Part shown: positions 2,366-56,404 of the stretch, one piece after another
Layout: the number at the start of each line of letters is the position of its first letter
How positions within the stretch are numbered: the first letter of the stretch is position 1
Source: Gammaproteobacteria bacterium
GTDB taxonomy: Bacteria > Pseudomonadota > Gammaproteobacteria > Steroidobacterales > Rariloculaceae
NCBI GenBank assembly: GCA_036381015.1
Contig: DASVDR010000045.1
Coordinates: forward strand, 2,537 to 66,536
Length of the DNA stretch: 64,000 nucleotides
Direction: 5' to 3'
Made by a program: the position numbers and the translations under genes
The notes under the pieces: generated by a model
Told to the model about the DNA's origin: nothing
Database searches by the model: none
Seen by the model: the letters and a program-made list of their open reading frames with translations, nothing else

Positions 2366-3549
2366 TGTCCGTGCGCTCCCGGATAGCCTCCGACAGAACC
2401 GCCGAGCGTCTCGGCGAACCAGTCGGCGATGTAGTCGCGCGCGAAGGTCATGTTGTCGGCGCCGACGTGCTCGACGCCGCCTTCGCGCGCGGTGAGAATC
2501 TTGAGCTCGCGGCGCGAGCTGTTCACGAGCTCCGCGTACGTGCGGCGCGCGTAGTCGAGCGGAATTTGCCGATCGCGCTCGCCGTGCACGACGAGGAACG
2601 GCACCTTGATTCGTTCGAGGATCCCGTCGAGATGCACGCCCGCCGATTTCGCGAGAAAGTCGTCGATGTCGCTCGCGCCGAACACCCACATCACGTGGTT
2701 CCAGTAGTGCGGCACGGGATGCTCGCCTTCGCGCTGCAGGCGCTTGCGCTGCACCTCGGCCCAATCGTGGTTCGCGCCCCACGCCGCGCCGCTAGCGAAG
2801 CGCGGCTCGAACGCCATCGCACGCGGCGCGAAGTAGCCCCCGAGCGAGATGCCGACGATGCCGATGCGCGCGGCGTCGATGTCGTCGCGCGCCGCGAGCC
2901 ATTCGTAGCACACGCTCGCCCAGCGCTCGCTCTCGTGCGTGGCGTGCAAGCCATGTAGCCGCAGCGATTCCCCGGTCCCCGGCTGGTCGACCGACAGCGT
3001 TGCAACGCCGCGGCGCGCGAGCGCGTGCGGCAGCGAGGACCAGTAGAGCAGCTCCTTGCAGCTGTCGAGGCCGTTGACGTAGAGCACGCATGGCGCTCGG
3101 CCTTCGCGGCCTTCGGCGCGGGTGAGCAAGGCCGGCATGACGGTGCCGGCATACGGAATCTCGATCCGCTCGGCGTTCTCGCGGCCGATCTCGATCGCAT
3201 GGCGGAACGCGCGCTGCGCTTTCGCGTACGTCGGCTCGCGGCCCGGATGCCCATGACCCTGCATCCGCTCCGCAACGAGATAGTAGAGTGCCGCGCGCTG
3301 CAGCTTCGCCGCCGCCGAAAGGAGCCTCCCTTTCGCTTCGTCCTCCGCCGCGAGCCCGACGAGGTTGTCGGCGACGGCGACCCACTGCGCGAGGAACTCC
3401 CCCGTGCCGGCATCCTCCCCGCGCGCCGCGGCTTCGAGCAACGGCCGGCACATGTCCTCGATCTCGCCGATCTGCCCGCCGCTCGCGAGCGCCATGTTGA
3501 CCGAGAGATTCCAGACGTAGTTGTTCGGGAAGTACTGAAAGAGCGCCAT
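2362..3549 (-). CDS. Alpha/beta hydrolase (2,6-dihydropseudooxynicotine hydrolase-like C-C hydrolase family)
   Basis: Start MALFQYFPNNYVWN; NGLDSCKE, DQPGTGE, nucleophile elbow GISLGG, C-terminal GGVEHVGADN. Confidence 0.88.
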   Translation of the reverse strand: MALFQYFPNNYVWNLSVNMALASGGQIGEIEDMCRPLLEAAARGEDAGTGEFLAQWVAVADNLVGLAAEDEAKGRLLSAAAKLQRAALYYLVAERMQGHGHPGREPTYAKAQRAFRHAIEIGRENAERIEIPYAGTVMPALLTRAEGREGRAPCVLYVNGLDSCKELLYWSSLPHALARRGVATLSVDQPGTGESLRLHGLHATHESERWASVCYEWLAARDDIDAARIGIVGISLGGYFAPRAMAFEPRFASGAAWGANHDWAEVQRKRLQREGEHPVPHYWNHVMWVFGASDIDDFLAKSAGVHLDGILERIKVPFLVVHGERDRQIPLDYARRTYAELVNSSRRELKILTAREGGVEHVGADNMTFARDYIADWFAETLGGSVGGYPGAHGQ

Positions 3550-3553
3550 CGCA

Positions 3554-4456
3554 CTAGACGCCCGCGGGCTGGAAGAGCCCCTTGTCGGGCTCCGCCGGCG
3601 GCATCGCTTTCGGCCCGCCGACGCCGATGCCCCACTGATCCATGATGCCGGGGCCGGGCTCGTAGACCGTCGGCTGCCACGTCGCGTCGTCCACGCGCTC
3701 GAGCTCGGCCGTGTATTCGACGGCGAAGCCGTTCGGCGTGACGAAGTAGCTGAACGCATTGTTGCCGGCCGTGTGCCGGCCGGGCCCCCAGCGTATCTCG
3801 ACGCCTTCGCCGCGGAGCCGCGCGATGCCGCGCATCATCTCGTCGATGCTCGCGACATCGTAGGCGACGTGGTTGAGGCACGGCGGGCCGGGCAGCAATG
3901 CGATGCGATGGTGCCATTCGTTGCAGCGCAGAAACACCATGAAGTCGCCGAGCCAGTCGCTCACGCGAAAGCCGAGCACATCGACGAAGAAGTCCGCCGC
4001 GGCCTTGTGATTCGGCGAGTGCAGCACGATGTGGCTGATCCGCACTGGAATCGCAGCACGCGGGGAGAGCTTCCGAGCCGCCCCTCGCTCGACGCCGCTC
4101 GAGACCTCGAACGGCAGGCCGTCAAGCGAAAAAAATCGGAAGCCGTAGCCGCCGCCGAGCGTCACGAGCGGGCCGGGAGGATGGACGACGCGGCAACCGG
4201 CCGCCTCGACCTTCTCGAAGAGCGCATCGACGTCCCGGTCGCTCGGCGCGGCGAGCGCAATCACATCGACGCGTTTGTCCTCTGCCTGCCGTAAGCGCAG
4301 CACGAAGAGCTCGTCGTGGCCCTCGGCCGCGAAGTAGATCAGCCCGTCACGCTCGGCGACCTGGCGCAGACCCCACTTGTCGGCATAGAACCGCCGCTCC
4401 GCCTCGAGGTCGGGCAGCGCAAGGCCGACGTAGCGAATCTCGGACACTCTGGACAT
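3554..4456 (-). CDS. VOC-family extradiol ring-cleavage dioxygenase
   Basis: GGAGG RBS then MSRVSEIRYVG; two VOC modules with ISHIVL, HHRIAL, LNHVAY, WGPGRHTAGNNAFSYF, VEY. Confidence 0.88.
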   Translation of the reverse strand: MSRVSEIRYVGLALPDLEAERRFYADKWGLRQVAERDGLIYFAAEGHDELFVLRLRQAEDKRVDVIALAAPSDRDVDALFEKVEAAGCRVVHPPGPLVTLGGGYGFRFFSLDGLPFEVSSGVERGAARKLSPRAAIPVRISHIVLHSPNHKAAADFFVDVLGFRVSDWLGDFMVFLRCNEWHHRIALLPGPPCLNHVAYDVASIDEMMRGIARLRGEGVEIRWGPGRHTAGNNAFSYFVTPNGFAVEYTAELERVDDATWQPTVYEPGPGIMDQWGIGVGGPKAMPPAEPDKGLFQPAGV

Positions 4457-9613: not shown

Positions 9614-9993
9614 GTGTCGGGTCCCGGACTGGATCCATAGCGGCGGTTCCATAAAAATTCACGGGACGACGAAAAGAAGGCCGTCGCGGCCGATGTTTGT
9701 GGCCACATCAGTCAGCAGGCGGTCAGGGGGCTTGGCGAGGGCCGCAGCAAGCTCGGCGAACCGGGACCGTTGAGCCCCGCCGCGCGCGCTGCCGCGCTAC
9801 TCGCTTCACGTGCTTCCACTCGTGGCAAGAACGGCGCCGAAGACGCCAGTGGAACACAGCAGAATCGTCAGGTTGGGGGTCGGACGAACGACTAACGCGG
9901 CTAGGCTTGCCGCAGGTCTACGGGTTATCTTTGGGGCAAGTGAGAATCCAACCGGCCTGCATCGCGGCCGCCTTCCGAGGGGGGAACAGAGAC

Positions 9994-10947
9994 GTGCATG
10001 AATGGAGACCATTCCGGGATGTAGCCGGGCGCTCGGGCCGAAGGCGAGGCACCTGGATGACGGCGTTCTTCGCGCTGTCGGGCACCCTCGCAGCAATGGG
10101 CTGGTCCGCCGGCGCTTCAGCGCAATGGCCGGAGTTCCGGGATCCGGCGGCGCCGCGCGACGCGGAAGGCAACGTGATCATGGACGCGCCGCCGCCGCGC
10201 ACCCCCGACGGGCACCCCGATTTCTCCGGGCTCTGGATGCGCACCCAAAGCGGGCCGCGGGATGAAGACCGGCGTTCGCAGGACGGGGGCGCCCCGATCG
10301 ACGTCGTGACCGCCCCTGTCCCGTTCGATCCAAAAGGTCCGCCGATCGCGGCATTCTTCGAAGCGGGCGAGAACATGGAGGGCGGTCTGCCGTACACTCC
10401 GTGGGCTCGCAACTTGCGAGACCAGCGTTTCGCGGCGAAGGCGAAGGACAACCCCGATGCCAACTGCATGCCGATGGGTTTTCTCCAGTTCCACCAGCAA
10501 CCTCAGCCTCGCAAGATCATTCAGACCGACGAGCTGATCCTGATCGAGTACGAAGCCAATTACGGTTTGCGCCACATCTATATCGACGGCCGAGAGCTGC
10601 CGCCGCAGGGCGAGCCTCAACCATGGTGGTACGGCTACTCCGTCGGTTATTGGGACGGCGATGACCTTGTCGTCCAGACCAACAACCTACGGGGCGCGGA
10701 AGACGGCCCGTTCGATGGCTGGCTCGACGTGAACGGCAGCCCTTACTCGCGGCAAGCGAAGATCACCGAGCGCTTCCGGCGTCCGACGTACGGTCATCTG
10801 CAGATCGACTTTACGGTCGACGATCCCAAGGCCTACACGAGGCCGTGGACGGTGCGAATCGATCAGCGGCTCTTGCCCGACCAGGAGCTGATCGAGTTCA
10901 TCTGCAACGAGAACCAGCAATTCGGTCGCAGGATTGAGTTGGATTAG
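9994..10947 (+). CDS. Exported conserved hypothetical protein (commonly paired with DUF6152)
   Basis: Signal peptide ending AGASA-Q; PDFSGLW, CMPMG, WYGYSVGYWDGDDLVV, DDPKAYTRPW, EFIC. Start may instead be 10057. Confidence 0.75.
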   Translation: MHEWRPFRDVAGRSGRRRGTWMTAFFALSGTLAAMGWSAGASAQWPEFRDPAAPRDAEGNVIMDAPPPRTPDGHPDFSGLWMRTQSGPRDEDRRSQDGGAPIDVVTAPVPFDPKGPPIAAFFEAGENMEGGLPYTPWARNLRDQRFAAKAKDNPDANCMPMGFLQFHQQPQPRKIIQTDELILIEYEANYGLRHIYIDGRELPPQGEPQPWWYGYSVGYWDGDDLVVQTNNLRGAEDGPFDGWLDVNGSPYSRQAKITERFRRPTYGHLQIDFTVDDPKAYTRPWTVRIDQRLLPDQELIEFICNENQQFGRRIELD

Positions 10948-10959
10948 GAGGTACGGGGC

Positions 10960-11475
10960 ATGCCGGATTACTCAGCCGCAAAGAGGAGTCGCCGCCGGTT
11001 CGGTGTAGTGACAATGGTCGGAACGATCGCGTGCGCCGCCGCCGGCATACTCGCGGCGCCGCCTCTGTCGGCCCATCATTCGTTCTCCGCCGAGTTCGAT
11101 GCCACTCGGCAGCTCAAGGTCACAGGCGAAGTCACCGAGGTCGAATGGACGAATCCGCACGCGTGGGTCTATCTAACTGCGCACGAGGTGTGTGAGCGGC
11201 GCGGGAGCGCGAATCTGCGCGACTCCAGCAGCGACGAGGAGTGGGCATGCAGGACGATTGGTGCGGACGAGCCCGGCGATTGGGGGTTCGAGCTGGCGAG
11301 CCCGAACGGCCTGATGCGCCAGGGTTGGAGCCGCAATTCGCTGGGTCTCGGTGAAACCGTAACGATCGAGGGATCGCGTGCACGCGACGACAGTCGGCAC
11401 GGTAATGCGCGAGTCGTGACCACGGCCGAAGGCGTGCGTCTGTTTGCCGGGTCGAGCCAGGGCAAGACACCGTAA
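10960..11475 (+). CDS. DUF6152 family protein
   Basis: GGAGG RBS; signal peptide then HHSFSAEFD...WTNPH...ELASPNGLMRQGW...GETVTIEG. Confidence 0.8.
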   Translation: MPDYSAAKRSRRRFGVVTMVGTIACAAAGILAAPPLSAHHSFSAEFDATRQLKVTGEVTEVEWTNPHAWVYLTAHEVCERRGSANLRDSSSDEEWACRTIGADEPGDWGFELASPNGLMRQGWSRNSLGLGETVTIEGSRARDDSRHGNARVVTTAEGVRLFAGSSQGKTP

Positions 11476-43631: not shown

Positions 43632-44456
43632 CTACCACGGTGCGATAGTGCCGTCGTGGTTGAAGAAACGGCCGCTGTCCTCGAGGGTTGCCTTCTCGAT
43701 CGTCTCGATCATGCCGCGCACGCTCACATCCGTCTCGATCATGCCGGGATAGCCCTCGAGGTACGATTGGCGCTCGGTCAGCACGGGACCGGGGTTCAGC
43801 ATGACGACGGTGACGCCGTCGTCCTTTTCCTCGCGTGCGACGAGCTGCATCGCGCGGTTCAGCGCGGCCTTGCTCGCCCGGTAGAAGATTGCGCCCGAGC
43901 CCGCGAGAGGCTCGGTCAGCGAGCCGTTCGTGGAGCTGATCGCGACGATCTTGCGCTGCTCGCTCGCCTTCACGTGCTCGATGAACGCCTCCGAGACCAT
44001 CAGCGGCCCTTTGACGTTCACGGCCAGGATCGTGTCCAACAGCGGGAAGTAGAGGTTGCCGAACGTCTGATTGCTCCAGTCGCCGGGGCAGTCCTCGGAA
44101 TCGCAGGCGCTGCGGTCGTTGTATACGCCGGCATTGTTTAGCAGCACGTCGATCGGCACATCGGCGAGCTTCTCGGCGAGCGCGGCGATCTGGTCCGGCT
44201 TCGTGACGTCCAAGCGCTCGACCCGAACGTTGTCGTACTTCGATTGAAGCTCGGCGAGCGTGTCCGGTATCGACGACCGGCGATGCGTGGCGATGACGGT
44301 CCACCCTTTTGCCGCATACTGCTTCGCGAACTCGAGGCCGATGCCGGAATTCGAGCCGGTGATCAGCACCGTCTCAGCGAACGAGCCCGGCGCGCACAGG
44401 ATCGCGCCGGCGGCCAGGACCGACACGGCAAAAGCTTTCGGCATCCTCACGGTCAT
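43632..44456 (-). CDS. SDR oxidoreductase (CsgA/C-factor-like) with signal peptide
   Basis: MTVRMPKAFAVSVLAAGAILCAPGSFA-ETVLITGSNSGIG; NNAG; YRASK; HPG-like NPGPV. Confidence 0.85.
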   Translation of the reverse strand: MTVRMPKAFAVSVLAAGAILCAPGSFAETVLITGSNSGIGLEFAKQYAAKGWTVIATHRRSSIPDTLAELQSKYDNVRVERLDVTKPDQIAALAEKLADVPIDVLLNNAGVYNDRSACDSEDCPGDWSNQTFGNLYFPLLDTILAVNVKGPLMVSEAFIEHVKASEQRKIVAISSTNGSLTEPLAGSGAIFYRASKAALNRAMQLVAREEKDDGVTVVMLNPGPVLTERQSYLEGYPGMIETDVSVRGMIETIEKATLEDSGRFFNHDGTIAPW

Positions 44457-44619
44457 TCGATTTTCTCCCCGGCCTGGTGTGTTTCCGCGAAAGCGAATTC
44501 TAAAGTCTAACCCGAGCGGATTCAGCCCGACGGGTCGCCGTTCGACGCCGGCTCCCGGAGAAGCACGCGCTGGCACGTATCTTGCCGCGAAGCGGCAGGT
44601 CCGAGTCGAAGCTCCGCCC

Positions 44620-45909
44620 ATGCTCGAAACCCTGAGCGGCGCCGTGCCGGTGCCCTATTGGCTACTCGCGCTTCACCTGCTGATCACGCTCGTTCTGATC
44701 GCCGTCGTGTGGTCGCTGAAGCATCGCCGCGACCCGCATTACCGCATCGAGAGCGATGCGCCGATCGCGGAAATGATGCCGTCGATCGTCGGGCTCACGC
44801 ACGGCCAGATCGTTCCCGGCAACGCGGTCGACTTCGTCGAGAACGGCGCTTTCTTCGACGCGCTGCTGCGCGACATCGCGGCCGCAGAGCGGTCGATTCA
44901 CTTCGAGACGTTTTTGTGGAAGGCGGGGGAGATCGAGCGGCGCCTGGTCGAAGCGCTCGCCGCCCGGAGCCGAGCCGGCGTGCGCGTGCGTGTGCTCGTC
45001 GACGCGAACGGCGGCAAGGGCATGAGCGAGGAGGCGGAGCGCGTCCTGCGCACTTCGGGGTGCACTGTGGCGCGATATCACCCCGGCGGGCTGCGCTCGC
45101 TAGGCCGCCTGAACAGCCGCGACCACCGCAAGCTCGCGGTGCTGGATGGGCGGCTCGCGTACGTCGGCGGACACTGCGTCGTCGACAGCTGGCTCGGCGA
45201 TGCCGAGGACGCCGAGCATTTCCGCGACATCTCGGCGCGCCTTCGCGGGCCCGTCGTGCACGCGCTCCAGTCCGCGTTCAGCGAGACCTGGGTGGTGACG
45301 ACCGGCGAGCTTTTCGCCGGCGAGGATGTTTTTCCGACGCTCGAGCCGGAAGGCGACACGCCCGTGCATGTGGCGAGGCTCAGACTGTCGGGTACGGCGT
45401 CGAGCGTGAAGATTCTGCATCATCTCGCGATCTGCTGTGCCCAGGAGCGGATCACGATCCAGAACCCGTACTTCCTTCCGGATTCCGACGGCATCGACCT
45501 GCTCGCCCACGCCGTCCAGCGCGGTGTGCAGGTGCGCGTGATGACGCCGTCGAGCGGCGCGTCCGACTTGGCGATCGTGCAGCACGCCGCCCACTCGAAC
45601 TACGCGAAGCTGCTCTCGGCAGGCGTGCGGCTTTACGAGTACCGGAAGACGCTGCTGCACCAGAAGGTCATGGTCGTCGACGGCCGGTGGTGCGCTTTCG
45701 GCTCGAGCAACTTCGACGACCGCTCCTTCGAGATCAACGAGGAGATCGTGCTCGGCTTCGACGATCCGAGGATCGCCGAGCGGCTCGAGCAGATCTTCGA
45801 GCGCGATGCGAAGGATTGCGTCGAGCTCACGACCGACTCGTGGTCGAGGCGCAGCATCGGCCATCGGCTGCTGGACGGGACGTCGTACCTGCTGAAGGAG
45901 CAGCTATGA
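44620..45909 (+). CDS. cls: Cardiolipin synthase / phospholipase D family
   Basis: N-terminal TM helix; two HKD motifs HRKLAVLD and HQKVMVVD; GSSNFD. Confidence 0.9.
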   Translation: MLETLSGAVPVPYWLLALHLLITLVLIAVVWSLKHRRDPHYRIESDAPIAEMMPSIVGLTHGQIVPGNAVDFVENGAFFDALLRDIAAAERSIHFETFLWKAGEIERRLVEALAARSRAGVRVRVLVDANGGKGMSEEAERVLRTSGCTVARYHPGGLRSLGRLNSRDHRKLAVLDGRLAYVGGHCVVDSWLGDAEDAEHFRDISARLRGPVVHALQSAFSETWVVTTGELFAGEDVFPTLEPEGDTPVHVARLRLSGTASSVKILHHLAICCAQERITIQNPYFLPDSDGIDLLAHAVQRGVQVRVMTPSSGASDLAIVQHAAHSNYAKLLSAGVRLYEYRKTLLHQKVMVVDGRWCAFGSSNFDDRSFEINEEIVLGFDDPRIAERLEQIFERDAKDCVELTTDSWSRRSIGHRLLDGTSYLLKEQL

Positions 45910-46030: not shown

Positions 46031-46438
46031 TCAGGAGCGCTCCTCGATCAGCTCGAGGGCCCTTTGCAACAGCTGCGGGTCCGCGTTGACGGCTTGCACG
46101 ACCATGTTGTACTTCTCGGGCGTCCAGCCGCGTTCCGCGATCTTATCGAAGCTTTCTTGCTGCATGCGGACTTGAACGTCCTGCGCTTCCTGTTCCGTCT
46201 CGACGGCGGCAAGCTCCTCTTCGAACTTATTGAGCGTCGCCTCGAGGTCGACGTAGATGTCGGCGAAGGTCTCGAGATCCTCGTCGGACACGGCTGCTCC
46301 CTCCGGGGGTGTGTCCGGCGCCGGCTGCTCGGCCGGCGGTGCCGGCTGCTGCGGCGGCGGCGCCGGTTCCTGGCCGACCGCGATCGAGGTCAGTGCGAGG
46401 GCCGCCCCGGCCGCCAACGGCATCACTAGTCGTCTCAT
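46031..46438 (-). CDS. DUF4168 domain exported protein
   Basis: Signal peptide, Pro/Gln linker, VSDEDLETFA...KYNMVVQAVNADPQL. Confidence 0.78.
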   Translation of the reverse strand: MRRLVMPLAAGAALALTSIAVGQEPAPPPQQPAPPAEQPAPDTPPEGAAVSDEDLETFADIYVDLEATLNKFEEELAAVETEQEAQDVQVRMQQESFDKIAERGWTPEKYNMVVQAVNADPQLLQRALELIEERS

Positions 46439-46512
46439 CGGAACCTCCTGATTTGGAACGAGCAACGGGCTCTGCAAGTCGCGTGCCACGCGCTCGCGGC
46501 GCCCGAGCGCGA

Positions 46513-47910
46513 TCAGGAGCCTTCGGGGCAAATGCCTTCCTCGCCGACCGCGGCCGTCTCCGGAAACGGGGCCCCGCCGCCGGGTCCGGTCAGGCTCACG
46601 CTCGTCGACAACGTGAATCGCGCGTCTCCTTCGCCGAACGCCGCCTCGGCGAACATCGCCTTGTAGCCGCCGATCGGAGCGGCGTCCTCGAAGACGAAGA
46701 CGCCGTCCTCGGCCGGCTCCGCGGGCCGCGACGAAAACCGCTCCTCGCGGAAGTCGGTGTCCTCGGAAGCCGCCGTCCAAACGCTGACGGCGGCGGGAAC
46801 GGGGTCGCCCGTGACGCAGACGCGAAGGCCGTCCGACCCGTTCTCGAACTCCCACTCGAGCCGCGGCAGCGGCTCGTCCGCTTCGCCGTTGCGATGCATC
46901 GCGTCGAGCGCCGGGATCAGCCGCGCGAGATCCTCGATGTCGTGGCCGTCGTTCGGGAGGTAGAGCACCCGTTTAGGCTCCGGCAGGCCGTTCCAGTAGA
47001 GATTCAGCGAGTCGATCGGGAAATAGGCGTCGTTCGTCGCGATGACGACGAGCTTCGGCTGCGTGAGCTGGCGGCGATAGCTGTAGGGGTCGACGATGCG
47101 TCGCAGCGCGCCTCCCTGGTCCGTGCCGAGCACGTCATCGAGCCCTCGGCTCGTATAAGGAGCGATCTCTTGCGACAACGCGCCCCAGATCGCCTCCTGG
47201 TGAGGCAGGTGGGCCTCGAAGTTCAAGACGTCGATGACGATCGGCACGAGCGTCGCCGCGCGCGGCTCGACCGCGCCCGTGAGCCAGGTCGTCCAGCCGC
47301 GCTTCGAGCCGCCCAGCACCGTGAAGCGCTCGATGCCGAGGTTCCACTCGGTCGACGTGAAAGCCTGCACGGCGTCCATCGCGCGAACGGCCGACTTCAC
47401 CATCGGCAGCAACAAGGGCCACTCCGCGTCGCCGGTTTCGAGAAATTCCTGAAACGTGTGCGCGATCAGATCGTCCTCGCGCAATCCGAACATCGGCTGG
47501 AACGGCACCTGGGCGAGAACGGCGACCACCGTGCCGAGCTCCTGGGCAATCCCGATGAAGAGCGGCGCCTCCTCGGGGAGCTCCGCAGCCGTGTTCGTGT
47601 CGTAGCTTTCGCGCCAGCGGCCGCCGCCGATGACGAGCATGCCCTGGCGAATTCCGGGATCGATGTCGTCGGGCCTGATGAGATAGAGCTGGTGCTTCCA
47701 CAACACGTCGCGCCAGGTTTGCGAGTGCAAACGAAGCTCGACGACCTCGGCGCCCGGCGCCTGGTAGCGCGCTTGCACATGCCAGCTGAAGGTCGGGTCG
47801 GGCGCCTCGACGTAATCCCGGAGCGCGGTCTCGGGCGGGCTGTCCGGCTCCGCATGCACGCCGCCGGCGAGTAGACCGAGCAGTGCCAGAGCCGCGGTAT
47901 TTCTGTTCAT
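46513..47910 (-). CDS. pqaA: PhoPQ-activated pathogenicity-related protein PqaA family (exported hydrolase)
   Basis: Signal peptide; SQTWR...WKH, QVPFQP, PMVKSAVRAMD, GGSKRGWTTW, DPYSY, YLPNDGH. Confidence 0.85.
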   Translation of the reverse strand: MNRNTAALALLGLLAGGVHAEPDSPPETALRDYVEAPDPTFSWHVQARYQAPGAEVVELRLHSQTWRDVLWKHQLYLIRPDDIDPGIRQGMLVIGGGRWRESYDTNTAAELPEEAPLFIGIAQELGTVVAVLAQVPFQPMFGLREDDLIAHTFQEFLETGDAEWPLLLPMVKSAVRAMDAVQAFTSTEWNLGIERFTVLGGSKRGWTTWLTGAVEPRAATLVPIVIDVLNFEAHLPHQEAIWGALSQEIAPYTSRGLDDVLGTDQGGALRRIVDPYSYRRQLTQPKLVVIATNDAYFPIDSLNLYWNGLPEPKRVLYLPNDGHDIEDLARLIPALDAMHRNGEADEPLPRLEWEFENGSDGLRVCVTGDPVPAAVSVWTAASEDTDFREERFSSRPAEPAEDGVFVFEDAAPIGGYKAMFAEAAFGEGDARFTLSTSVSLTGPGGGAPFPETAAVGEEGICPEGS

Positions 47911-48116: not shown

Positions 48117-50012
48117 ATGATGAGGCTCGAGGCGAATCGCATGACTCTCCCCGGGAAGAAAATCGTTCTCGCGGCCGCAGCGCTCGCTTTCCTGTGCAGC
48201 GGCGCCGCGTCGGCGCAGCCCGAGTGGCGCTGGTCCCGATCTTCCAAGATCGTCGTGGTTCCGGACATTCACGGCGCGTACTCCGAGCTCGTGGCGCTCC
48301 TCGAAGCGACCGATCTCGTCGACGCGAACCTCGACTGGATCGGCGGCGATGCGACCTTGGTGACGCTCGGCGACCTGGTCGATCGAGGCGCGGGCTCGCG
48401 GAAGGTCCTGGACTTGCTGATGCGCTTGCAACGCCGCGCGGCGGAGCAAGGCGGCGCGGTGCACGTCCTGCTCGGGAACCACGAGCTCATGAATCTGACC
48501 GGAGATTTGCGCTACGTCTCGCAAGCCGATTATGCCGCGTTTACGGATGAAGAGTCGCCGGCTTTGCGTGCGTCGGCCTACGAGCGCTTCCTCGCCGACC
48601 GCCGCGCGGCGGGCGGCTCCGAAGCCGACGCGAGAGCCGCTTTCGAGCGTCTTTACCCGCCGGGCTTTTTTGCACGCGAGCGCGCCTTTCGGGCCGACGG
48701 CAGGTACGGGACGTGGCTGCTGACGCTGCCCGCGCTGATCGTCGTCAACGACACGGCGTTCGTTCACGGCGGGCTGCCCGAGATCGTGGCGAGCACCGGA
48801 GCGGCGGCGCTGAATCAGCAGATCGGCGACGACCTTCGCCGCTACCTGCGTCTGCGGGCCCGCCTCGTGGAAGCGGGAGTCTTACCCGCATTCGATCCCA
48901 GGCAGGACCTGGAGCTCGCGCGTGCGGCACGCGGGAACCTGCCGCCGGCGCCCGAAGCCCCGGCGCCCGATGTCCCCGCGTTCGACGCCGCGCCGCCCGA
49001 CGCGGAGCTTGCGAATCTGCTCGACGCGTTCCTCGCCCTCGCGGAGGCGCCGGAGCTCGGCGTCGACGGTCCGCTTTGGTACCGAGGCTCCGTGTACTGC
49101 AATCCGTTTCTGGAAGAGCCCGTGCTCGCGGCGGCGCTCGATCGGCTGGAAGCGGCGCGCGTCGTGGTCGGCCATACGCCGACGGAGGATCGCCGGCCGC
49201 GGGAGCTGTACGACGGCCGGCTCATCATGCTCGATACGGGGATGTTGACCGCTTACTACGCGGGCCGCCCCGCCGCGCTCGTCATTGACGGCGAGCGGAC
49301 GCTCGTGCAGGAGCTTGGAGCCGAGGAGCCGGTGCCGCTCGAGCGCGGGAGGCTCGAGGCGGACGGCCTCACGGAAGCGCAGGTGCTCGAAACGCTCTCG
49401 CAGGGAGCGGTGAAGGCCCTCGAGGACGGGGCGAGGTTTCGTGCGACCACCCGGGTGCAGGTGCTCCACAACGGCAAGAGCATCGAGGCCCTCTTTTATC
49501 CGCGGGGACGTGCGGCGGACCGCGAGCTTGCGGCCTATCGTCTCGACCGCCTGCTCAGTGTGAATCTCGTGCCGCCCACGGTCGAGCGTGAGGTCGAGGG
49601 GGAGCGCGGCGCCTTGCAGCTCGTGTATCGAGACGCGATCACCGAGTCCGAACGGATCGAGCAACGAACGCCGCTCGGCGGATGGTGCCCCATCGAGCCC
49701 CAAGCCGAGCTCATGCGGGTGTTCGACCTGTTGACCGCCAATACGGGGCGGACGGGAGACAACATCCTCTACCGTCGCGAATCTTCGGTGCTGAAGCTCG
49801 TCGACCACGCGGAGGCCTTCGGGGCCGCCGGCCGGCTGCGCCTGCGGCGAGGCTCGGTCGAGCTGACGCCGGCGCTTCGCGCTGCTCTCGCATCGCTCGA
49901 TCGAAATACGCTCGAATCGGCAATCGGGCAGTGGATCGACGCCGACGAGATCGAAGCCTTGCTCGAGCGGCGCGATGCGCTGCTCGAGCAAGCGGCGTCG
50001 TCCACCCGTTGA
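48117..50012 (+). CDS. Exported PPP-type metallophosphoesterase (Shewanella-like phosphatase) fused to a degenerate atypical kinase-like domain
   Basis: Signal peptide ending GAASA-Q; DIHG, GDLVDRG, GNHE, FVHGG, GHTP; C-terminal RELAAYRLDRLL..NLVPPTVER...FDLLTANTGR...NIL...LVDHAEAF. Start may be 48141. Confidence 0.85.
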   Translation: MMRLEANRMTLPGKKIVLAAAALAFLCSGAASAQPEWRWSRSSKIVVVPDIHGAYSELVALLEATDLVDANLDWIGGDATLVTLGDLVDRGAGSRKVLDLLMRLQRRAAEQGGAVHVLLGNHELMNLTGDLRYVSQADYAAFTDEESPALRASAYERFLADRRAAGGSEADARAAFERLYPPGFFARERAFRADGRYGTWLLTLPALIVVNDTAFVHGGLPEIVASTGAAALNQQIGDDLRRYLRLRARLVEAGVLPAFDPRQDLELARAARGNLPPAPEAPAPDVPAFDAAPPDAELANLLDAFLALAEAPELGVDGPLWYRGSVYCNPFLEEPVLAAALDRLEAARVVVGHTPTEDRRPRELYDGRLIMLDTGMLTAYYAGRPAALVIDGERTLVQELGAEEPVPLERGRLEADGLTEAQVLETLSQGAVKALEDGARFRATTRVQVLHNGKSIEALFYPRGRAADRELAAYRLDRLLSVNLVPPTVEREVEGERGALQLVYRDAITESERIEQRTPLGGWCPIEPQAELMRVFDLLTANTGRTGDNILYRRESSVLKLVDHAEAFGAAGRLRLRRGSVELTPALRAALASLDRNTLESAIGQWIDADEIEALLERRDALLEQAASSTR

Positions 50013-50118
50013 CCTTCAGCCGTGTCTGCCGGGCGCCGGGACCGCCTCGACGACGCAAGGGCGTCGTCCTTCGCGACACCCGTGCAGAGGGAGCGGATCC
50101 AAGCGCCGCAGCACCGTT

Positions 50119-52632
50119 TCAACGCGATGCATCCGGTGCCGATAGGCGCCGGCACGCGCGCACGATCTCCTCTCCCTCGGATGACCCGATCGCGCTGAAG
50201 AACTCGTCGAGATACGCCTGCGCCTTTTCGCGGGCGCGATCTTCGAGCCCGGGAATCTCGTCGACGAGCTCGGAGACCGCGGTTTGTCGGGTTAGAAAGC
50301 GCTCGAAGAGCGGCTGCCACTGGAGGTCCGAATGGCAGAAACCTCGATACAAGCGCTCCGTGACCGAACGGATCGGCAGCTTCGGCGACGGCCCGGCGTA
50401 GGAAGCGTCGACGAGGCCCGAGAAGTCGAAGTCGTACGGTACGGCCGTCACGAGCCCGTCGGCGTCGACGAAGCCGGCGACGTTGTGACCCGCGATCGCG
50501 GACCAGTCCGTGTTCCCGATCAGGTATTGAAACAGCTCGAAGGTGGCCAGCTCACGAGCATCGGTCTCGCCTGGATCGAGCTCGCCCTCCGGCTGCAACG
50601 TCGCGTGCAGCCGCTTCGCAAGAGAATCGAAGTGCTCGGTAAAGAAGGCGTAACGCTGAACCTCGCGGCTGCGTCGCCGCCCCTCGTCCCGATAGGTGAT
50701 TCGAGCGAGCCGAACCCGCAGGCTCTTGTCGGTCAGCAGGTTGTAGATTCGATACGCGAGGTACTCTTTCAGCACGTACTGCTCATAGGCAGCGCTCTCG
50801 CGGCAGTGAGTCGTCAGCGGCAGCATCGTTTGGCCTTCGAACGGCGTGCCTTCAGCCCCGGCGGCAAAGAACACGAACAGCGGCGGCACGGCGCAATTGC
50901 CGGACTCGTTCCGCCAAACGCCGCGCACGCGCAGACGAACGTCGACGCGCCGCTCCGCACCGTGCCCGTCGCTGACGACGAGCGTAGCCGGCGCGTCCGC
51001 GCAGTCCGACCGCGTCGTGCGGCGGCACAGCGCCTTCGAGGTCATCACGAGCTCCAGCGCGAGAGGTTCGCTTTCGGCGAACAGCGCGTCGCGCTCGAGG
51101 GGCTGCGAGTCGGCGATCAGCGGCTCGGTAGCCGCCGCCTCCGTGATCGTCGACTGGGCGGACGCGTCCTCGGGCGTCGAGAGCGTAACGACGGCCAGCG
51201 CGACAGCGGTCGCGCCGACTGCCGCCCATCGCCGAACGATAGCGGCCGCCCGCGGCGCGGCCCGGCGGCCGGGGTAGCGTTTGCCGATTTGCACGGTCAC
51301 GACGATCCAGACCAATGCGAGGAGCATGTTCACTGCGGCAAATTCGCGAAAACCGAAGCCGAGCCAATTGAGCCCCGCGTAAATCCAGCCGGCCTGCACG
51401 AGGTCGCCCAGGCGCCAGAAGAAGGTGTCGACCGCGGTCTTGCCCTCGTATTGATGCCTGGCCGGCAACGGCAAAAAGAGAGCGTGCCGAGCCGTGTTCA
51501 TGATCGAGTATTCGGTGCTGTTTTCGACAATCTTAACCGCGCGAATGATGCCGAAGATAGGCAGGAAAGCGGCCAGGCCGTAACCGATGAAGGCGACGAT
51601 CGGCAGGATCAGAATTGCTCCCTGAACTCCGATCCAGCGAAAGATCCGCGCTACCAAGCACATTTGCAGCAGCAGGCCGAGCGCGTTGACGGCCATGTAA
51701 TAGTTGCCGTAGAAGGACGCGATCAGATCGCCCTTGTCGAGTCCCGGATCGGCGGCGATCCGTTGATCGGCGTCGCGAATCACGAGCTCGGTCAATATGT
51801 ATTCGCCGGTCGTGTTCACGCAGTTGAGCAGCACGGCGAGCAGCGCGAGCAGCAGCAAGTAGCGATTGCCGAGCACGAGCGTGAATCCGTCGAGCAGGTG
51901 AGCAGAGCCACGACCGGCGGCCGACGGCGCTTGCTCCCGCCTGCCGGACTGCGGAGGCACCGCGTTCGCGCTGCGCTCGACGAGCGGCAGCGTGATCGCG
52001 AGCAGAACGACCGCGACCAGCATCAGGTTCCACGGGCCGAGCCACGGAAAGAGCACGCCGCTCAGCCGCGGTCCGACGAGCGCGCCGACCGCGGCGCCGG
52101 CCATGATCAGGGGAAAAAGGCGTTGGCCGGCCTCGAGGTTGAACGCATGAGCGGCGTGCGCCCAGAGTTGGGCGAGAATGGTGACGCCGAATACCCCGAC
52201 CCACACGTAGTAGGCGAAGCTCACGTCGACGCCGCTGCGACCGAGCAGATAGAAGAGGCCGAGATTGGCCATGAAGAACAGGGTGATCCAGCGGACGAGC
52301 AAGCGCGGTGCGGTGCGCTTGGCCAATCCGCTGTACAACGGCACGCCCACGAGCAAGACGGCCGCGATCGCACCGCAAGCGTAGCTCTTGAGCGCCGCCG
52401 AGCCGCCCGCGAGAAGCAGCGGCTCCCTGATCGTCTTCAAGACGTAGTAGCAGACGAGCAGCAGCAACGCGTAGGCCGCGAAGAGCGCCGCGCTTTTCCC
52501 CTCTCCCGGCCGGACGGTCGTGAACAGACCGAAAACCCGTTCGGAAAGCGAGCGCTTCGAAGCACGCCGAGCGGCGGCCGCGTCGGTTTCCGCCGCCAAG
52601 GATTCGAAGCCGGTCGTCGTCGCTGCGTTCAT
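50119..52632 (-). CDS. NTT/TLC (Npt1/Npt2-like ATP/ADP translocase) family transporter fused to a C-terminal CotH-like kinase-fold domain
   Basis: N-terminal about 12 TM with YYVLKTIREPL, YYVWVG, FNLEAGQRLFP, ENSTEYSIMNTARHALFLP, YEGKTAVDTFFWRLGD. Then an extra hydrophobic helix and RG..R...C..PPL, THC, KEYLAYRIYN, GNTDWS...HN, PYDFDFSG. Confidence 0.85.
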   Translation of the reverse strand: MNAATTTGFESLAAETDAAAARRASKRSLSERVFGLFTTVRPGEGKSAALFAAYALLLLVCYYVLKTIREPLLLAGGSAALKSYACGAIAAVLLVGVPLYSGLAKRTAPRLLVRWITLFFMANLGLFYLLGRSGVDVSFAYYVWVGVFGVTILAQLWAHAAHAFNLEAGQRLFPLIMAGAAVGALVGPRLSGVLFPWLGPWNLMLVAVVLLAITLPLVERSANAVPPQSGRREQAPSAAGRGSAHLLDGFTLVLGNRYLLLLALLAVLLNCVNTTGEYILTELVIRDADQRIAADPGLDKGDLIASFYGNYYMAVNALGLLLQMCLVARIFRWIGVQGAILILPIVAFIGYGLAAFLPIFGIIRAVKIVENSTEYSIMNTARHALFLPLPARHQYEGKTAVDTFFWRLGDLVQAGWIYAGLNWLGFGFREFAAVNMLLALVWIVVTVQIGKRYPGRRAAPRAAAIVRRWAAVGATAVALAVVTLSTPEDASAQSTITEAAATEPLIADSQPLERDALFAESEPLALELVMTSKALCRRTTRSDCADAPATLVVSDGHGAERRVDVRLRVRGVWRNESGNCAVPPLFVFFAAGAEGTPFEGQTMLPLTTHCRESAAYEQYVLKEYLAYRIYNLLTDKSLRVRLARITYRDEGRRRSREVQRYAFFTEHFDSLAKRLHATLQPEGELDPGETDARELATFELFQYLIGNTDWSAIAGHNVAGFVDADGLVTAVPYDFDFSGLVDASYAGPSPKLPIRSVTERLYRGFCHSDLQWQPLFERFLTRQTAVSELVDEIPGLEDRAREKAQAYLDEFFSAIGSSEGEEIVRACRRLSAPDASR

Positions 52633-52898
52633 CGTCTCATCCCCAAAGCGCCTTCGTGCTTCGCCGCTGCTCGCCCCGTATCTCGCTCGGACCGGCGCGC
52701 CATGGGTAAGAGAGTGCGCGCAAACGCTCTTAAGAGACTGATGCAAGAAGAATTGTTTTCATCGCGAAATCCGCGCAAACGTTCGGAGTTCTGCGGATTC
52801 CGGAAGGCGAGGGTGTGTTGCCGGCGCGTCGGCGCGCCGCTAACATCGTTCTCGGCTTCCCACCACGCGCCCGCGCGTAGGGGTCAACGGCAACTCCC

Positions 52899-54518
52899 AT
52901 GGACCAGCGACTGCGACGCGGCTTCCGCATCGGCGCATTCGACGTCGAGCCGCTCTCCGGACGCATCAGCGGCCCCGGCGGCGGCCAGCACGTCCAACCG
53001 AAGGTCATGGACGTGCTCGTCTATCTCGCCGAGCACGCGGGCGAGCTCGTCGAGCGGGACACGCTGCTCGAGCAAGTGTGGCGCCGGATCACCTCGGAGG
53101 AGGTCTTGACGCGCTGCATCAGCGAGCTGCGGCGGGCCTTGGGCGACGACCGGGGCAGCCCCCGCTACATTCAGACGGTGCCGAAACGCGGATACCGGCT
53201 CGTCGAGCCGATCGTGCTCGACCACGAGGAGAGCGAACGTACGCCGCAGGCCGCCGCGGATGGCGGTGCCGCCGCGACGGCCCCGCTGAACCCGCCTTCG
53301 CCCTCCAGCGCCATGGCCGCGATCGCCGTGCTGCCGTTCGAGAATCACTCTGCGGATCCGGCCGTCTCGTTCATCGGGGACGCGTTCGCGGCCGAGCTCC
53401 ACAGCACGCTCGCACGCGTCGACCGCCTGCGGGTCGCGTCCCGCCGCTCGTCGTTCGTCTTCAAGGATGCGAGCGTCGACATTCGCGAGATCGGCAGGAG
53501 ATTGAATGTCGACTACGTCATCTCGGGCAGCGTGCAATCCAGCAGCGGGTCCGTGCACGTCGTCGCCGAGCTCAACGACGCATCGGGCGGCACCCAGATC
53601 TGGGCGCAAAGCTACGACCGCAAGAGCGAGGATCTGCTCGCGATCGAAAGGGACGTCGCGGGGGCAATCGTCGGCTCGTTCACGACACATCGACTGCGGG
53701 CCGAGACCAATAGCGCGAGACACCGACCCACGAGCAGTCTCGATGCTTGGGGCCTCGTGCAAAAGGCGCGCGCTTTCGCGTTCGAGTACACGCCGAGCGG
53801 CCTGGCGGACGCGATCGAGCCGGTGCGCCGCGCGATCGAGCTCGACAAGGACTATCCGGCCGCGCACGCCATGTTGGCCTCGCTGCTCGTGGAGCGGCTC
53901 GTGAACGGCTGGAGCACGGAGCCGAAGCGCGACGAGTCGGCTGCGCTCGAAGCGGCGGAGAAGGCGGCGACGCTGGCGCCGCAGGACCCGTTCATCCAGA
54001 AGATGGCGAGCCTGGTATGGACCTATTTCGGCGACTACCGCAGGGCCATCGGCTGCCTGCGAAAGGCGGTCGAGTACGCCCCGTTCGATTTTGGCGCGTG
54101 GGGCTACATGGGCTGGCCGCTGACGGCCTCGGGGGAGGAAAAGGACTTGAGCGATCTGCACGGCATACTCGATCGCTTGTTGAGCATGGAGCCGCACCAC
54201 CCGGGGGTTGCGTTCTGGCGTTATCACGAGTCGGTCGCCGCCGTTTGCGAAGGCAAACTCGAAGACGCGCGGGCGTCGGCGGAAGCGGCGCTCGAGCTGC
54301 GGCCGAACCTATCGCTCGCCTGCATGCACCATGCGAACGTGCTCGGCCGGTTGAATCTCAAGAAGGCGGCTCAGGACGCGTTGGAGCGCTGTCGCAAGAT
54401 CAATCCCGCGATGACGCCGAAGCACTTCGAGTCACTGATCGAGCGCATGACCGACAACGAGAGCGTGATCGAGCACAGGCTGGGAGGCCTTCGCAAGATC
54501 GGTGCCTTGCGCGGCTGA
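52899..54518 (+). CDS. OmpR/CadC-type winged-helix regulator with TolB-like/TPR sensory region
   Basis: VQPKVMDVLVYL...LLEQVW...LTRCISELRRAL..YIQTVPKRGYRL; IAVLPFEN; TPR repeats; no TM. Confidence 0.9.
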   Translation: MDQRLRRGFRIGAFDVEPLSGRISGPGGGQHVQPKVMDVLVYLAEHAGELVERDTLLEQVWRRITSEEVLTRCISELRRALGDDRGSPRYIQTVPKRGYRLVEPIVLDHEESERTPQAAADGGAAATAPLNPPSPSSAMAAIAVLPFENHSADPAVSFIGDAFAAELHSTLARVDRLRVASRRSSFVFKDASVDIREIGRRLNVDYVISGSVQSSSGSVHVVAELNDASGGTQIWAQSYDRKSEDLLAIERDVAGAIVGSFTTHRLRAETNSARHRPTSSLDAWGLVQKARAFAFEYTPSGLADAIEPVRRAIELDKDYPAAHAMLASLLVERLVNGWSTEPKRDESAALEAAEKAATLAPQDPFIQKMASLVWTYFGDYRRAIGCLRKAVEYAPFDFGAWGYMGWPLTASGEEKDLSDLHGILDRLLSMEPHHPGVAFWRYHESVAAVCEGKLEDARASAEAALELRPNLSLACMHHANVLGRLNLKKAAQDALERCRKINPAMTPKHFESLIERMTDNESVIEHRLGGLRKIGALRG

Positions 54519-55044: not shown

Positions 55045-55165
55045 GCGCGTTCCTCCGCGTCCATCGGACGAGCGCGTCGATTCGCCGGCGAGAGGGGCTT
55101 CCGAGAGGCTCGGGCCTGATAAGATGGACGCAAGCGTCATCGAACAGAGGGACGGAGCGAGAACT

Positions 55166-56404
55166 ATGAACAGATCAGCTGCGAGGAGCCCGTCGGTCAA
55201 CGCTCTTATTTGCTGCTGCTCGATATTCGGATTGGTCGGGTACACCGCCGCCGCAATTGCCGAAGATCCGTGGCCCTGGAGCGGTGACGTCAGCGATGAC
55301 GCCGTGACACTTCTGCTGCTCGGAGACTTCAACGTGCAGCAAAGAGAGCACCCGGCCGACGCGCTCCAACTCGTGCGGCAAACCCTCAACGAAGCCGATC
55401 TCGTGTATGCCAACCTCGAAGGCCTGCTCGTGGAATCGAAGGGTCCCGCCTGGGATCTCCCGAACAAGAACGGATGGACGCATCTCGGGCCGGAAGCCGT
55501 GGAGGCGCTCGTCGCCGGCAATATCTCCGTGGTCGGCGTCGCCAACAACGTCGCCTACGGGCGCGACAACATCATGGCCAGCCTGTCCGTGCTGGATGCG
55601 CACGGAATCGCGCACACCGGAGCGGGGAAGGACATCGATGCAGCTCACGAACCGGCCATCGTCGAGAAGAACGGCGTGACGTTCGGCTTCCTGCAATACA
55701 CGTCGAAGTGGTACGACGAGGCAGAGCAGATCGCGACGGAAGACGCGGCGGGCGTTGCGCGGCTGAAGTCTCCGGACGGCACCACGATCGACCCGGGTGA
55801 TCTGGATCGGCTGCTGGACGACATACGGCGTACGAGACCGAAGGTGGACGTCCTCGTCGTGTCTGCCCACACGCGTGACGGCCAGGGAAGAGACGGTGCA
55901 TCGCGCGATAACCGCACGCGAAACGCGGCGACCGCGGCCGGCGCGGCGAGCGCCACAACGGCGACAAGCGCGGCCACCGACGATCTGTATTCGCGCCTCC
56001 CCGTCAACGAGAACCTGCAGTACTTCGAGCCCTACCAAAGACGCCTCGCCCAGGCCGCGATCGATGCCGGGGCCGATATCGTCTTCGGTCACGGTTGCCA
56101 CTCGCTGCAGGCCGTCGAGACCTACGCCGGTAAGCCCGTCATGTATTGCCTCGGCAATTTCGCTTCCGACTGGATACGCGTCAGAGATTATCGTGACGGG
56201 CTGGTCGCAAGGGTCGTCATCGAGGACAAGCGAGTGAAGCGTGTCTCGCTGGTGCCCGTCACGCGGGACGCCGAGACCAACAATGTATGGCTCGTGCCGC
56301 CCGACTCGCCCGAGGGCGAAAGGCTTTATGGCAAGCTCCGGGAGCTATCGGGCTCCACCGATCTGAAGCTGGACGGGCAGGAGCTGGTTCTGCTCGAGCA
56401 GTGA
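55166..56404 (+). CDS. CapA (poly-gamma-glutamate synthesis/metallophosphatase-fold) family exported protein
   Basis: LGDFN, ANLEG, VANN, AHTGAG, IDAGADIVFGH, YCLGNF. Confidence 0.82.
   Translation: MNRSAARSPSVNALICCCSIFGLVGYTAAAIAEDPWPWSGDVSDDAVTLLLLGDFNVQQREHPADALQLVRQTLNEADLVYANLEGLLVESKGPAWDLPNKNGWTHLGPEAVEALVAGNISVVGVANNVAYGRDNIMASLSVLDAHGIAHTGAGKDIDAAHEPAIVEKNGVTFGFLQYTSKWYDEAEQIATEDAAGVARLKSPDGTTIDPGDLDRLLDDIRRTRPKVDVLVVSAHTRDGQGRDGASRDNRTRNAATAAGAASATTATSAATDDLYSRLPVNENLQYFEPYQRRLAQAAIDAGADIVFGHGCHSLQAVETYAGKPVMYCLGNFASDWIRVRDYRDGLVARVVIEDKRVKRVSLVPVTRDAETNNVWLVPPDSPEGERLYGKLRELSGSTDLKLDGQELVLLEQ

Follow-up and report, generated by a model that had tools for sequence, protein, structure and literature searches.

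What do the NTT-like transporters of free-living bacteria do, and where do kinase-fold enzymes with signal peptides obtain a phosphodonor once they are outside the cytoplasm? These two questions are joined by a single gene in the DNA analysed here, a 64,000-nucleotide stretch (the window) of contig DASVDR010000045.1 from a gammaproteobacterium of the Rariloculaceae. An initial annotation described this gene, an open reading frame (ORF) on the minus strand, as an ATP/ADP translocase-family transporter fused through a 13th helix to a CotH-like kinase domain. We conclude that its product very probably joins a 12-helix inner-membrane transporter of the NTT/TLC type, with both ends in the cytoplasm, to a basic linker, an internal Sec signal that exports the rest of the chain and a 314-amino-acid (aa) periplasmic CotH-like enzyme, and that it originated from an operon pair. 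The complete explanation that we consider best, which adds inferred functional steps to this architecture, is tentative and falls somewhat short of probable.

The fusion gene and its junction

The ORF and its parts were delimited as follows.

50119..52632, minus strand: whole fusion ORF, 837 aa plus stop (uninterrupted translation from an ATG start)
51277..52503, minus strand: transporter domain with 12 transmembrane (TM) helices (aa 44-452), a distant member of the NTT/TLC superfamily (AlphaFold (AF2) model, profile search and Foldseek)
51235..51276, minus strand: basic cytoplasmic linker after TM12 (YPGRRAAPRAAAIV, then RR), placed by the positive-inside rule
51157..51234, minus strand: TM13, an internal signal-peptide-like segment (aa 467-492: RR-WAAVGATAVALAVVTL-STPEDASA), recognized by its n-h-c layout, Pro and AxA
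51085..51156, minus strand: disordered acidic linker (aa 493-516), with a model confidence score (pLDDT) below 50 in both models and a length that varies among homologues
50143..51084, minus strand: exported CotH-like protein-kinase-like domain (aa 517-830; AF2, Foldseek and a sub-threshold Pfam match)

There were no stop codons or frameshifts between the two halves. An in-frame TTG at 52746, upstream of the ATG, is a possible alternative start; homologues all begin at the equivalent of the Met at 52632 (M1), which is the common start and is invariant across 38 aligned full-length fused homologues. The junction was compared with independent Logan contigs of public sequencing runs from two soil studies and further metagenomes. 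A single 7592-bp contig from run X1 covered positions 50000-52800, and a 3348-bp contig from run X2, which belongs to the other study, covered 51014-52800, each with 0 differences and 0 gaps, while exact 151-bp pieces from two further metagenomes (runs X3 and X5) spanned 51031-51364. A search of 5.8 billion proteins yielded approximately 65 protein clusters with the full-length fused architecture (46-75% identity, full coverage, 780-906 aa), and the same continuous frame was present in clusters from JGI, ENA, NCBI and Logan assemblies. All of the fused clusters with organism names came from gammaproteobacterial metagenome-assembled genomes (MAGs); the source MAG of the window (3.49 Mb, 95.7% complete) has the CotH-like domain once. 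These results confirm the continuous frame that had been read across the junction, and misassembly there, which the initial annotation had flagged as a concern, is excluded by the 0 differences in the assemblies of two studies. Every sequence element that it had quoted is also present: NMLLALVWIVVTVQIG, KRYPGRRAAPRAAAIVRR, WAAVGATAVALAVVTL...PEDASA/Q, KEYLAY, GNTDWSAIAGHN, PYDFDFSG and TMLPLTTHC.

The full-length AF2 model (pLDDT 81) contained 12 transmembrane helices, the last of which (TM12) is NMLLALVWIVVTVQIG, and a 13th segment. When the family profile was compared with solved structures, it matched C. pneumoniae NTT1 (CpNTT1, 9J3N) with an E value of 4.8e-12 and Arabidopsis AtNTT1 (9J3J) with 8.2e-9, and the best other protein of the major facilitator superfamily (MFS) reached only about 1. 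Foldseek gave CpNTT1 and AtNTT1 as ranks 1-3 (E 3e-10 to 5e-9, TM-score on target 0.66-0.71), followed by generic MFS proteins at approximately 1e-6. The Pfam TLC model (PF03219) scored 18.8 bits, under its 21-bit gathering threshold (GA), with a match covering aa 349-453 only, and NCBIfam TIGR00769 scored 22.4 bits against a cut-off of 387; faint precomputed PF03219 matches were present on some homologues. Taken together, these comparisons place the transporter half within the NTT superfamily, as a genuine though remote member.

The loops of the transporter follow a positive-inside pattern that fits a 12-helix core with both its N and C termini inside. Between TM12 and the next hydrophobic segment lie 19 residues, seven of which are Arg or Lys (linker KRYPGRRAAPRAAAIVRR). 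Judged by inspection, that segment has each element of a Sec signal peptide, namely a basic n-region, a hydrophobic h-region of 12-18 residues and small residues at -3 and -1: RR is followed by WAAVGATAVALAVVTL and then by STPEDASA/Q, which places the predicted signal peptidase I site, on the same visual reading of the layout, at A492/Q493. AF2 modelled the segment as a helix at low confidence (pLDDT about 55). All 38 fused homologues have a basic n-region, a short h-region rich in Ala, Val and Gly, and a Pro approximately 6 residues before a small-x-small motif (ASA, ARA, AAA, AEA and others); the -1 Ala (A492) is nearly invariant in their alignment, and the distance from the cleavage motif to the conserved 'LF' that opens the C-terminal domain ranges from a few residues to a few tens. 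Because the cleavage motif has been kept over much sequence divergence, TM13 is probably, if only just, still cut by signal peptidase I after A-S-A492, and the 13th helix may be removed rather than act as a tether. The periplasmic location that had been proposed for the C-terminal domain is supported by the positive-inside pattern, by its conserved cysteines and by its exported homologues.

The exported CotH-like domain and the origin of the fusion

A separate AF2 model of the C-terminal domain, built with 35 homologues, reached a pLDDT of 85.9 and a predicted TM-score (pTM) of 0.86. The best Foldseek match of this model in the PDB was B. cereus CotH (5JD9/5JDA; E 5.4e-10, probability 1.00, TM 0.55/0.53), and the remaining matches (HipA, Rio2, PI4K, mTOR, Src and others), at E values of 1.5e-3 or higher, were all kinase folds. 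At the level of sequence, Pfam CotH (PF08757) scored 16.9 bits on the whole protein and 21.1 bits on the domain alone, compared to a GA of 23.8, and 16 of 21 family members had sub-threshold matches to this model in the catalytic region (profile positions about 175-257). An hhalign comparison of the 21-sequence family profile with a 4-sequence canonical CotH profile, both of them small, returned a probability of 6%; against PDB sequences, phmmer found no match to the domain, and a profile search found only a chance match to picornavirus VP2 (E 1.2). Since hhalign gave only 6%, homology to CotH rests on fold and motifs and not on sequence statistics. The kinase-like fold claimed in the initial annotation was therefore borne out by the Foldseek match, whereas its CotH label holds for fold and motifs but not for membership of the Pfam family, the domain scoring below GA and belonging to a large separate family that has no model.

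Four elements of the domain were aligned with CotH.

50911..50925, minus strand: RGVWR (R570-G571-x-x-R574), invariant in the N-lobe and lining up with the CotH 'RGnsS' loop
50827..50829, minus strand: T602, aligned with the conserved CotH Lys (G-x-K-x-F-x-L), on which hhalign and manual alignments agree
50482..50517, minus strand: catalytic loop GNTD709WSAIAGH716N717 (GNTDWSAIAGHN region), matching CotH QNFD...HN
50416..50439, minus strand: PYD734FD736FSG, corresponding to the DFG-like motif IPWDYD with which CotH binds metal

For this comparison, part of the B. cereus CotH sequence was recovered through a canonical CotH from a related genome. The CotH segment ...QNFDGFVHNYALY...IPWDYD... corresponds to ...GNTD709WSAIAGH716N717VAGF...VPYD734FD736... 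in the window domain. Residues D228 and D251 of B. subtilis CotH are essential (PMC7821199), and D709 and D734 are their equivalents, because the D228-D251 gap of 23 equals the spacing from NFD to WD. Conservation was counted over 193 diverse members of the CotH-like family. Every one of them keeps D709, N717, E623, E666, R674, C580 and C610, and nearly all keep D734 (192) and D736 (191) as well as R570 (191), G571 (189) and R574 (188); C766 and C827 are present in about 175. The column of T602 is variable and reads D, N, K or S. Equivalents of the CotH catalytic Asp, Asn and metal-binding Asp were thus found and the conserved strand Lys before helix C was not, in agreement with the earlier statement that the catalytic motifs are kept (D709, N717 and D734 align) and the expected Lys is missing. 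The RGVWR motif is a candidate phosphate-binding element, and we infer that the domain is an active enzyme in which the RGxxR motif and E623 would replace the missing Lys.

The family to which this domain belongs is large. A profile search of 1.84 billion representatives (50% identity level) gave 3860 matches at E<=1e-3 and 1697 at E<=1e-30. With few exceptions these proteins are 330-400 aa long, with the domain starting at residue 25-60, and stand-alone members carry classical N-terminal signal peptides, e.g., MKTGLLSLLCLAGALFAGTARA/DTLLF. When one genome per species was scanned, at least 586 loci came to light, spread over Gemmatimonadota, Bacteroidota, Xanthomonadales/Lysobacterales, Alphaproteobacteria and other groups. 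The family is not covered by any Pfam or NCBIfam model.

Homologues of the fusion exist in both fused and split form, the former in the approximately 65 clusters and the latter in two loci, L012 (Lysobacterales) and L085 (Xanthomonadales), where an unfused orthologous transporter gene is directly followed by a CotH-like gene with a signal peptide. The CotH-like proteins of these two pairs are 42% identical to the window domain, and their transporters (L012:983-2626 and L085:5001-6626; 541-547 aa) have a C-terminal He_PIG Ig-like domain and no 13th helix. We compared the domains of 36 fused proteins, the two adjacent genes of L012 and L085 and two stand-alone genes, L010 (~9890-11044) and L011 (~2690-3732), in a maximum-likelihood tree. 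All of them formed one clade (support 97/87), within which L010 and L011 nested deep inside the fused members (support 100/97). The latter two are signal-peptide versions 55-59% identical to the window domain, and their genomes hold only distant NTT-like genes (24-25% identity). It is strongly supported that the fusion arose from a transporter gene directly preceding a gene for an enzyme with a signal peptide, and that this signal peptide became TM13. The tree can be read as a single origin of the linkage, followed by fusion and then by at least one fission back to an ordinary secreted protein; fission would have been easy if the internal signal peptide had stayed functional. The earlier proposal that the 13th helix is the retained signal peptide of a once separate gene thus gains from the N-terminal signal peptides of thousands of stand-alone homologues, from the two unfused transporter-then-enzyme loci and from the single clade, with the correction that the helix keeps the conserved AxA and may be cut off.

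Several other arrangements were seen in relatives. The sister architecture of TLC and He_PIG occurs in dozens of clusters (about 540 aa). A periplasmic position of its Ig-like domain was considered and rejected; since these proteins have no 13th helix, the domain should be cytoplasmic, although domains of this type usually lie outside cells. Downstream of one such gene, where L085 has its CotH-like gene, the sole gene is a 153-aa ORF without a Pfam match (L087:6647-7108). Two general rules failed: unfused orthologous transporters do not always precede a CotH-like gene, the rule holding for L012 and L085 but not for L086 and L093-L095, and genomes with stand-alone members do not always hold an NTT-like gene, only 14 of 30 doing so. 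In a gemmatimonadotal locus (L028; G091:C44:53544-54935), a stand-alone CotH-like gene and an NTT-like gene that shares 38-47% identity with the window transporter are approximately 8 kb apart; the NTT-like gene gave two separate matches, perhaps because of a frameshift or an insertion. In Zetaproteobacteria, a published gene map shows a CotH-domain gene (Sfz6) adjoining an 'ATP-ADP antiporter' gene, a pairing left uncommented there (PMC8250860).

Neighbouring genes and the function of the locus

The fusion gene lies between two genes on the opposite strand; further genes stand outside them.

48117..50012, plus strand: convergent exported Shewanella-like PPP phosphatase with a C-terminal SCO1664/PI3-4K-like domain
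52899..54518, plus strand: divergent CadC/HilA-type winged-helix regulator with a TolB-N-like region and TPR repeats (Pfam and NCBIfam matches)
44260-45909, plus strand: PLD-type phospholipase/cardiolipin-synthase-like protein
46031-46855, minus strand: DUF4168 protein
46513-47910, minus strand: PhoPQ-activated pathogenicity-related (PqaA-type) protein (E 1.7e-103), the call for which overlaps that of the DUF4168 protein, one start probably being wrong
55124-56404, plus strand: PGA_cap (CapA-like) protein of a metallophosphatase-fold family, just past the regulator

The phosphatase has a signal peptide visible in its sequence and an N-terminal domain that matches the cold-active PPP phosphatase of Shewanella (1V73/2Z72; E 5e-26) with the motifs GDxHG/GDxVDRG/GNHE intact, and its C-terminal domain gave a sub-threshold match to TIGR03843 (SCO1664 family, PI3/4-kinase-like; E 6e-12). 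The split pair in L085 has a convergent orthologue beside it (48% identity), and others lie near the fused genes in L002, L008 and L009. Beside stand-alone CotH-like genes, a full-length relative (40% identity over 539 residues) was found in L017 and shorter genes of the same type in eight further loci from several phyla. The regulator, with a TolB-N-like 'IAVLPFEN' region and no obvious transmembrane helix, is divergent from the fusion gene in all close fused loci (L002, L003/L007, L005, L006, L008 and L009) at 65-90% identity and is more conserved than the fusion gene itself. A consensus scan found neither a sigma-70 promoter nor an intrinsic terminator around the fusion gene.

The anatomy of the locus suggests an extracytoplasmic phosphorylation module made up of a carrier, an exported kinase-fold enzyme, an exported phosphatase and a regulator, and the fusion suggests that the transporter supplies the enzyme with nucleotide. 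We propose that cleavage at TM13 would turn one translation product into two proteins in a 1:1 ratio, a transporter in the membrane and a soluble enzyme in the periplasm. The enzyme would be catalytically active, with D709 as the base, N717, D734 and D736 holding metal ions, and R570 and R574 together with E623 standing in for the missing beta3 Lys. The transporter would carry a cytoplasmic nucleotide triphosphate to the periplasmic face, most simply ATP in exchange for ADP or Pi, and so feed the enzyme; the neighbouring phosphatase would reverse the modification, and the divergent regulator would control the gene set. The conserved fusion and its matching operon form are a Rosetta-stone argument for joint work of transporter and enzyme. 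Supply of nucleotide to a periplasmic kinase is the leading reading of the locus, one that we hold tentatively and regard as possible rather than probable. Its fullest form, in which Gram-negative bacteria would run ATP-dependent periplasmic phosphorylation by means of an NTT-type carrier that exports ATP and takes in ADP or Pi, is translated in one chain with a CotH-like kinase destined for export and is served by a Shewanella-like phosphatase (Shelph) as eraser and by a dedicated regulator, is on balance unlikely.

Several observations weigh against nucleotide supply, the first set of which concerns the transporter. K155, E245, E385 and K527 of AtNTT1 matter by mutagenesis, and K527E abolishes ATP binding there (PMC3306366). 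We mapped these residues by alignment to 9J3J, whose chain numbering is the native numbering minus 84, an offset that puts K155 and K527 on lysines.

AtNTT1 K155: C86 in the window transporter, variable here, in a poorly aligned region where the mapping is uncertain
AtNTT1 E245: G146, invariant here
AtNTT1 E385: N273
AtNTT1 K527: D410, an invariant Asp here, in a local match of R-L-G-D to P-L-G-K

None of this charged set is kept at the aligned positions of the transporter. With these residues not conserved and ATP binding in AtNTT1 abolished by K527E, ATP/ADP exchange is not to be assumed; the protein is weak as an NTT by sequence, below the Pfam TLC and TIGR00769 cut-offs, and ATP may not be its substrate. 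The family assignment in the initial annotation therefore stands on the profile and Foldseek matches, but its 'ATP/ADP' specificity does not. A second set concerns the enzyme, which lacks the conserved CotH Lys and is mostly found alone. Most members of its family have no linked transporter, L010 and L011 nest within the fused clade, and an NTT-like gene is absent from 16 of the 30 genomes that hold stand-alone members, among them all the Bacteroidota genomes tested. These findings indicate that the enzyme is not generally transporter dependent. In addition, four of the seven unfused orthologous transporter loci examined (L086 and L093-L095) have no adjacent CotH-like gene, and in a fifth, L087, the 153-aa ORF is all that stands downstream.

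The leading alternative is that the two halves share a pathway other than ATP supply. Here the target of the enzyme and the phosphatase would be a small molecule or phospho-compound outside the cytoplasm, the transporter would import the product or export the substrate, and the phosphodonor, if any, would come from elsewhere. The loss of the four AtNTT1 charged residues, with K527 aligned to an invariant Asp, the diversity of known NTT-family substrates (PMC5381601) and the fact that most family members work without a linked transporter are all consistent with this view. However, a kinase-fold enzyme with an intact D/N/D set would still need an extracytoplasmic nucleotide donor, and the proteins nearest to the transporter in sequence and fold are nucleotide exchangers. 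Its conserved arginines (R69, R171, R382 and R407) would suit an anionic, phosphate-bearing substrate, a further point against this alternative. We consider it unlikely.

A different possibility is that the fusion is a mere polyprotein that ensures co-expression, its internal signal peptide being cleaved and its mature halves working independently with no hand-over of substrate. The AxA and short Ala-rich h-region in all 38 fused homologues fit such a product, L010 and L011 show how easily the enzyme reverts to a free secreted protein, and a precedent is offered by the cytochrome b/c1 polyprotein FbcH of Bradyrhizobium japonicum, which, in work attributed to Thony-Meyer et al., is reportedly cleaved at an internal signal peptide into two proteins. 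But because the pairing recurs as an operon and as a fusion in one clade and, independently, as the CotH/antiporter adjacency in Zetaproteobacteria, functional linkage is favoured over chance co-expression, and we judge the polyprotein explanation to be quite unlikely.

Very improbable, in our view, is a C-terminal domain that is a non-catalytic periplasmic sensor, or pseudokinase, gating or regulating the transporter. The missing beta3 Lys and the regulatory interpretation given to NTT-HEAT and NTT-HEAT-cNBD fusions (PMC5381601) are compatible with such a role, but the residues that match the catalytic Asp, the Asn and the two metal-binding Asp of CotH, as well as E623, are invariant in 191-193 of the 193 diverse members. 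By far the most members, moreover, are secreted on their own and so have no transporter to gate, and the cleavage motif is retained. Finally, an assembly or frameshift artefact uniting two separate genes has next to no chance of being the explanation, for although split versions exist in other lineages (L012 and L085), we found no evidence for an artefact, and the exact junction-spanning contigs from two studies and the same frame in approximately 65 clusters have already refuted it.

Comparison with known systems

The components of this protein are of known kinds; what is new is the way they are combined, the additional pass through the membrane and how large the family without a model is. 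If nucleotide supply is true, NTT-like transporters of free-living bacteria would in part be nucleotide suppliers for extracytoplasmic kinases. The system is compact and clonable, as one gene or as three with the phosphatase and regulator. The analysis also exposes a very large exported CotH-like family, with 3860 representatives at 50% identity and invariant catalytic residues, and the junction is a probable natural example of an internal cleavable signal peptide within a bacterial polyprotein. Our literature search found no description of the transporter-CotH architecture or of the exported CotH-like family, and at NCBI the fused proteins go under 'hypothetical protein' or 'MFS transporter'. 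Known NTT fusions carry HEAT, HEAT-cNBD, SAM-methyltransferase or 2OG-oxygenase partners (Major, Embley & Williams 2017, PMC5381601), and those of free-living bacteria are listed there with unknown functions. No NTT-CotH protein is among them, in line with the remark in the initial annotation that such a fusion is not known to have been described. The partner in the window differs from these in being an enzyme that is periplasmic beyond an extra membrane pass, no such pass having been described for the HEAT, cNBD, SAM-methyltransferase and 2OG-oxygenase fusions.

Compared to the NTT/TLC transporters (TC 2.A.12; PF03219; CpNTT1 9J3N/9J3O and AtNTT1 9J3J/L/M), the window transporter has the same 12-helix MFS-type fold, and its loop motif NS..YS..NT.R..LYLPL....EGKTAID aligns with the NTT motif K.YSLFD..KEMAYIPLD...KGKAAID; like them, it is found in free-living bacteria as a module with a C-terminal fusion partner. 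It differs in scoring under the Pfam and TIGR cut-offs and in having lost the AtNTT1 charged set, with an invariant Asp in place of K527. With CotH (PF08757; 5JD9/5JDA; B. subtilis CotH, Nguyen et al. 2016), its top structural match, the C-terminal domain has in common the kinase-like fold and the motif order of RG loop, hinge Glu, N-x-D catalytic loop, (H)N and P-[WY]-D-x-D, and it is exported, as many CotH proteins are. Identity to CotH is only approximately 12%, the Pfam scores of 16.9-21.1 bits lie below the GA of 23.8, and the Lys is replaced by a variable residue. Invariant features that set the family of the window domain apart are R570/R574, E623 and R674, to which two Cys pairs of wide conservation are added. 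The neighbouring phosphatase has the N-terminal domain and motifs of the Shelphs (1V73, 2Z72), from which it differs in its extra C-terminal SCO1664/PI3-4-kinase-like domain and in adjoining a CotH-like gene.

FbcH and the window fusion each consist of a polytopic membrane protein that ends in the cytoplasm and whose ORF runs on into an internal signal peptide and then a domain for the periplasm. The protein families are unrelated, and cleavage, said to be proven for FbcH, is predicted for the window fusion from the conserved AxA. In eukaryotes, Fam20C and its relatives, kinases of the secretory pathway, depend on the import of ATP into the Golgi lumen. Common to both cases is an atypical kinase-fold enzyme in a compartment that has no ATP synthesis of its own, so that a nucleotide carrier is needed. 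The carrier and the kinase of the Golgi are separate, unrelated genes, whereas here they are fused or adjacent, and the likeness between the two systems is one of functional analogy only.

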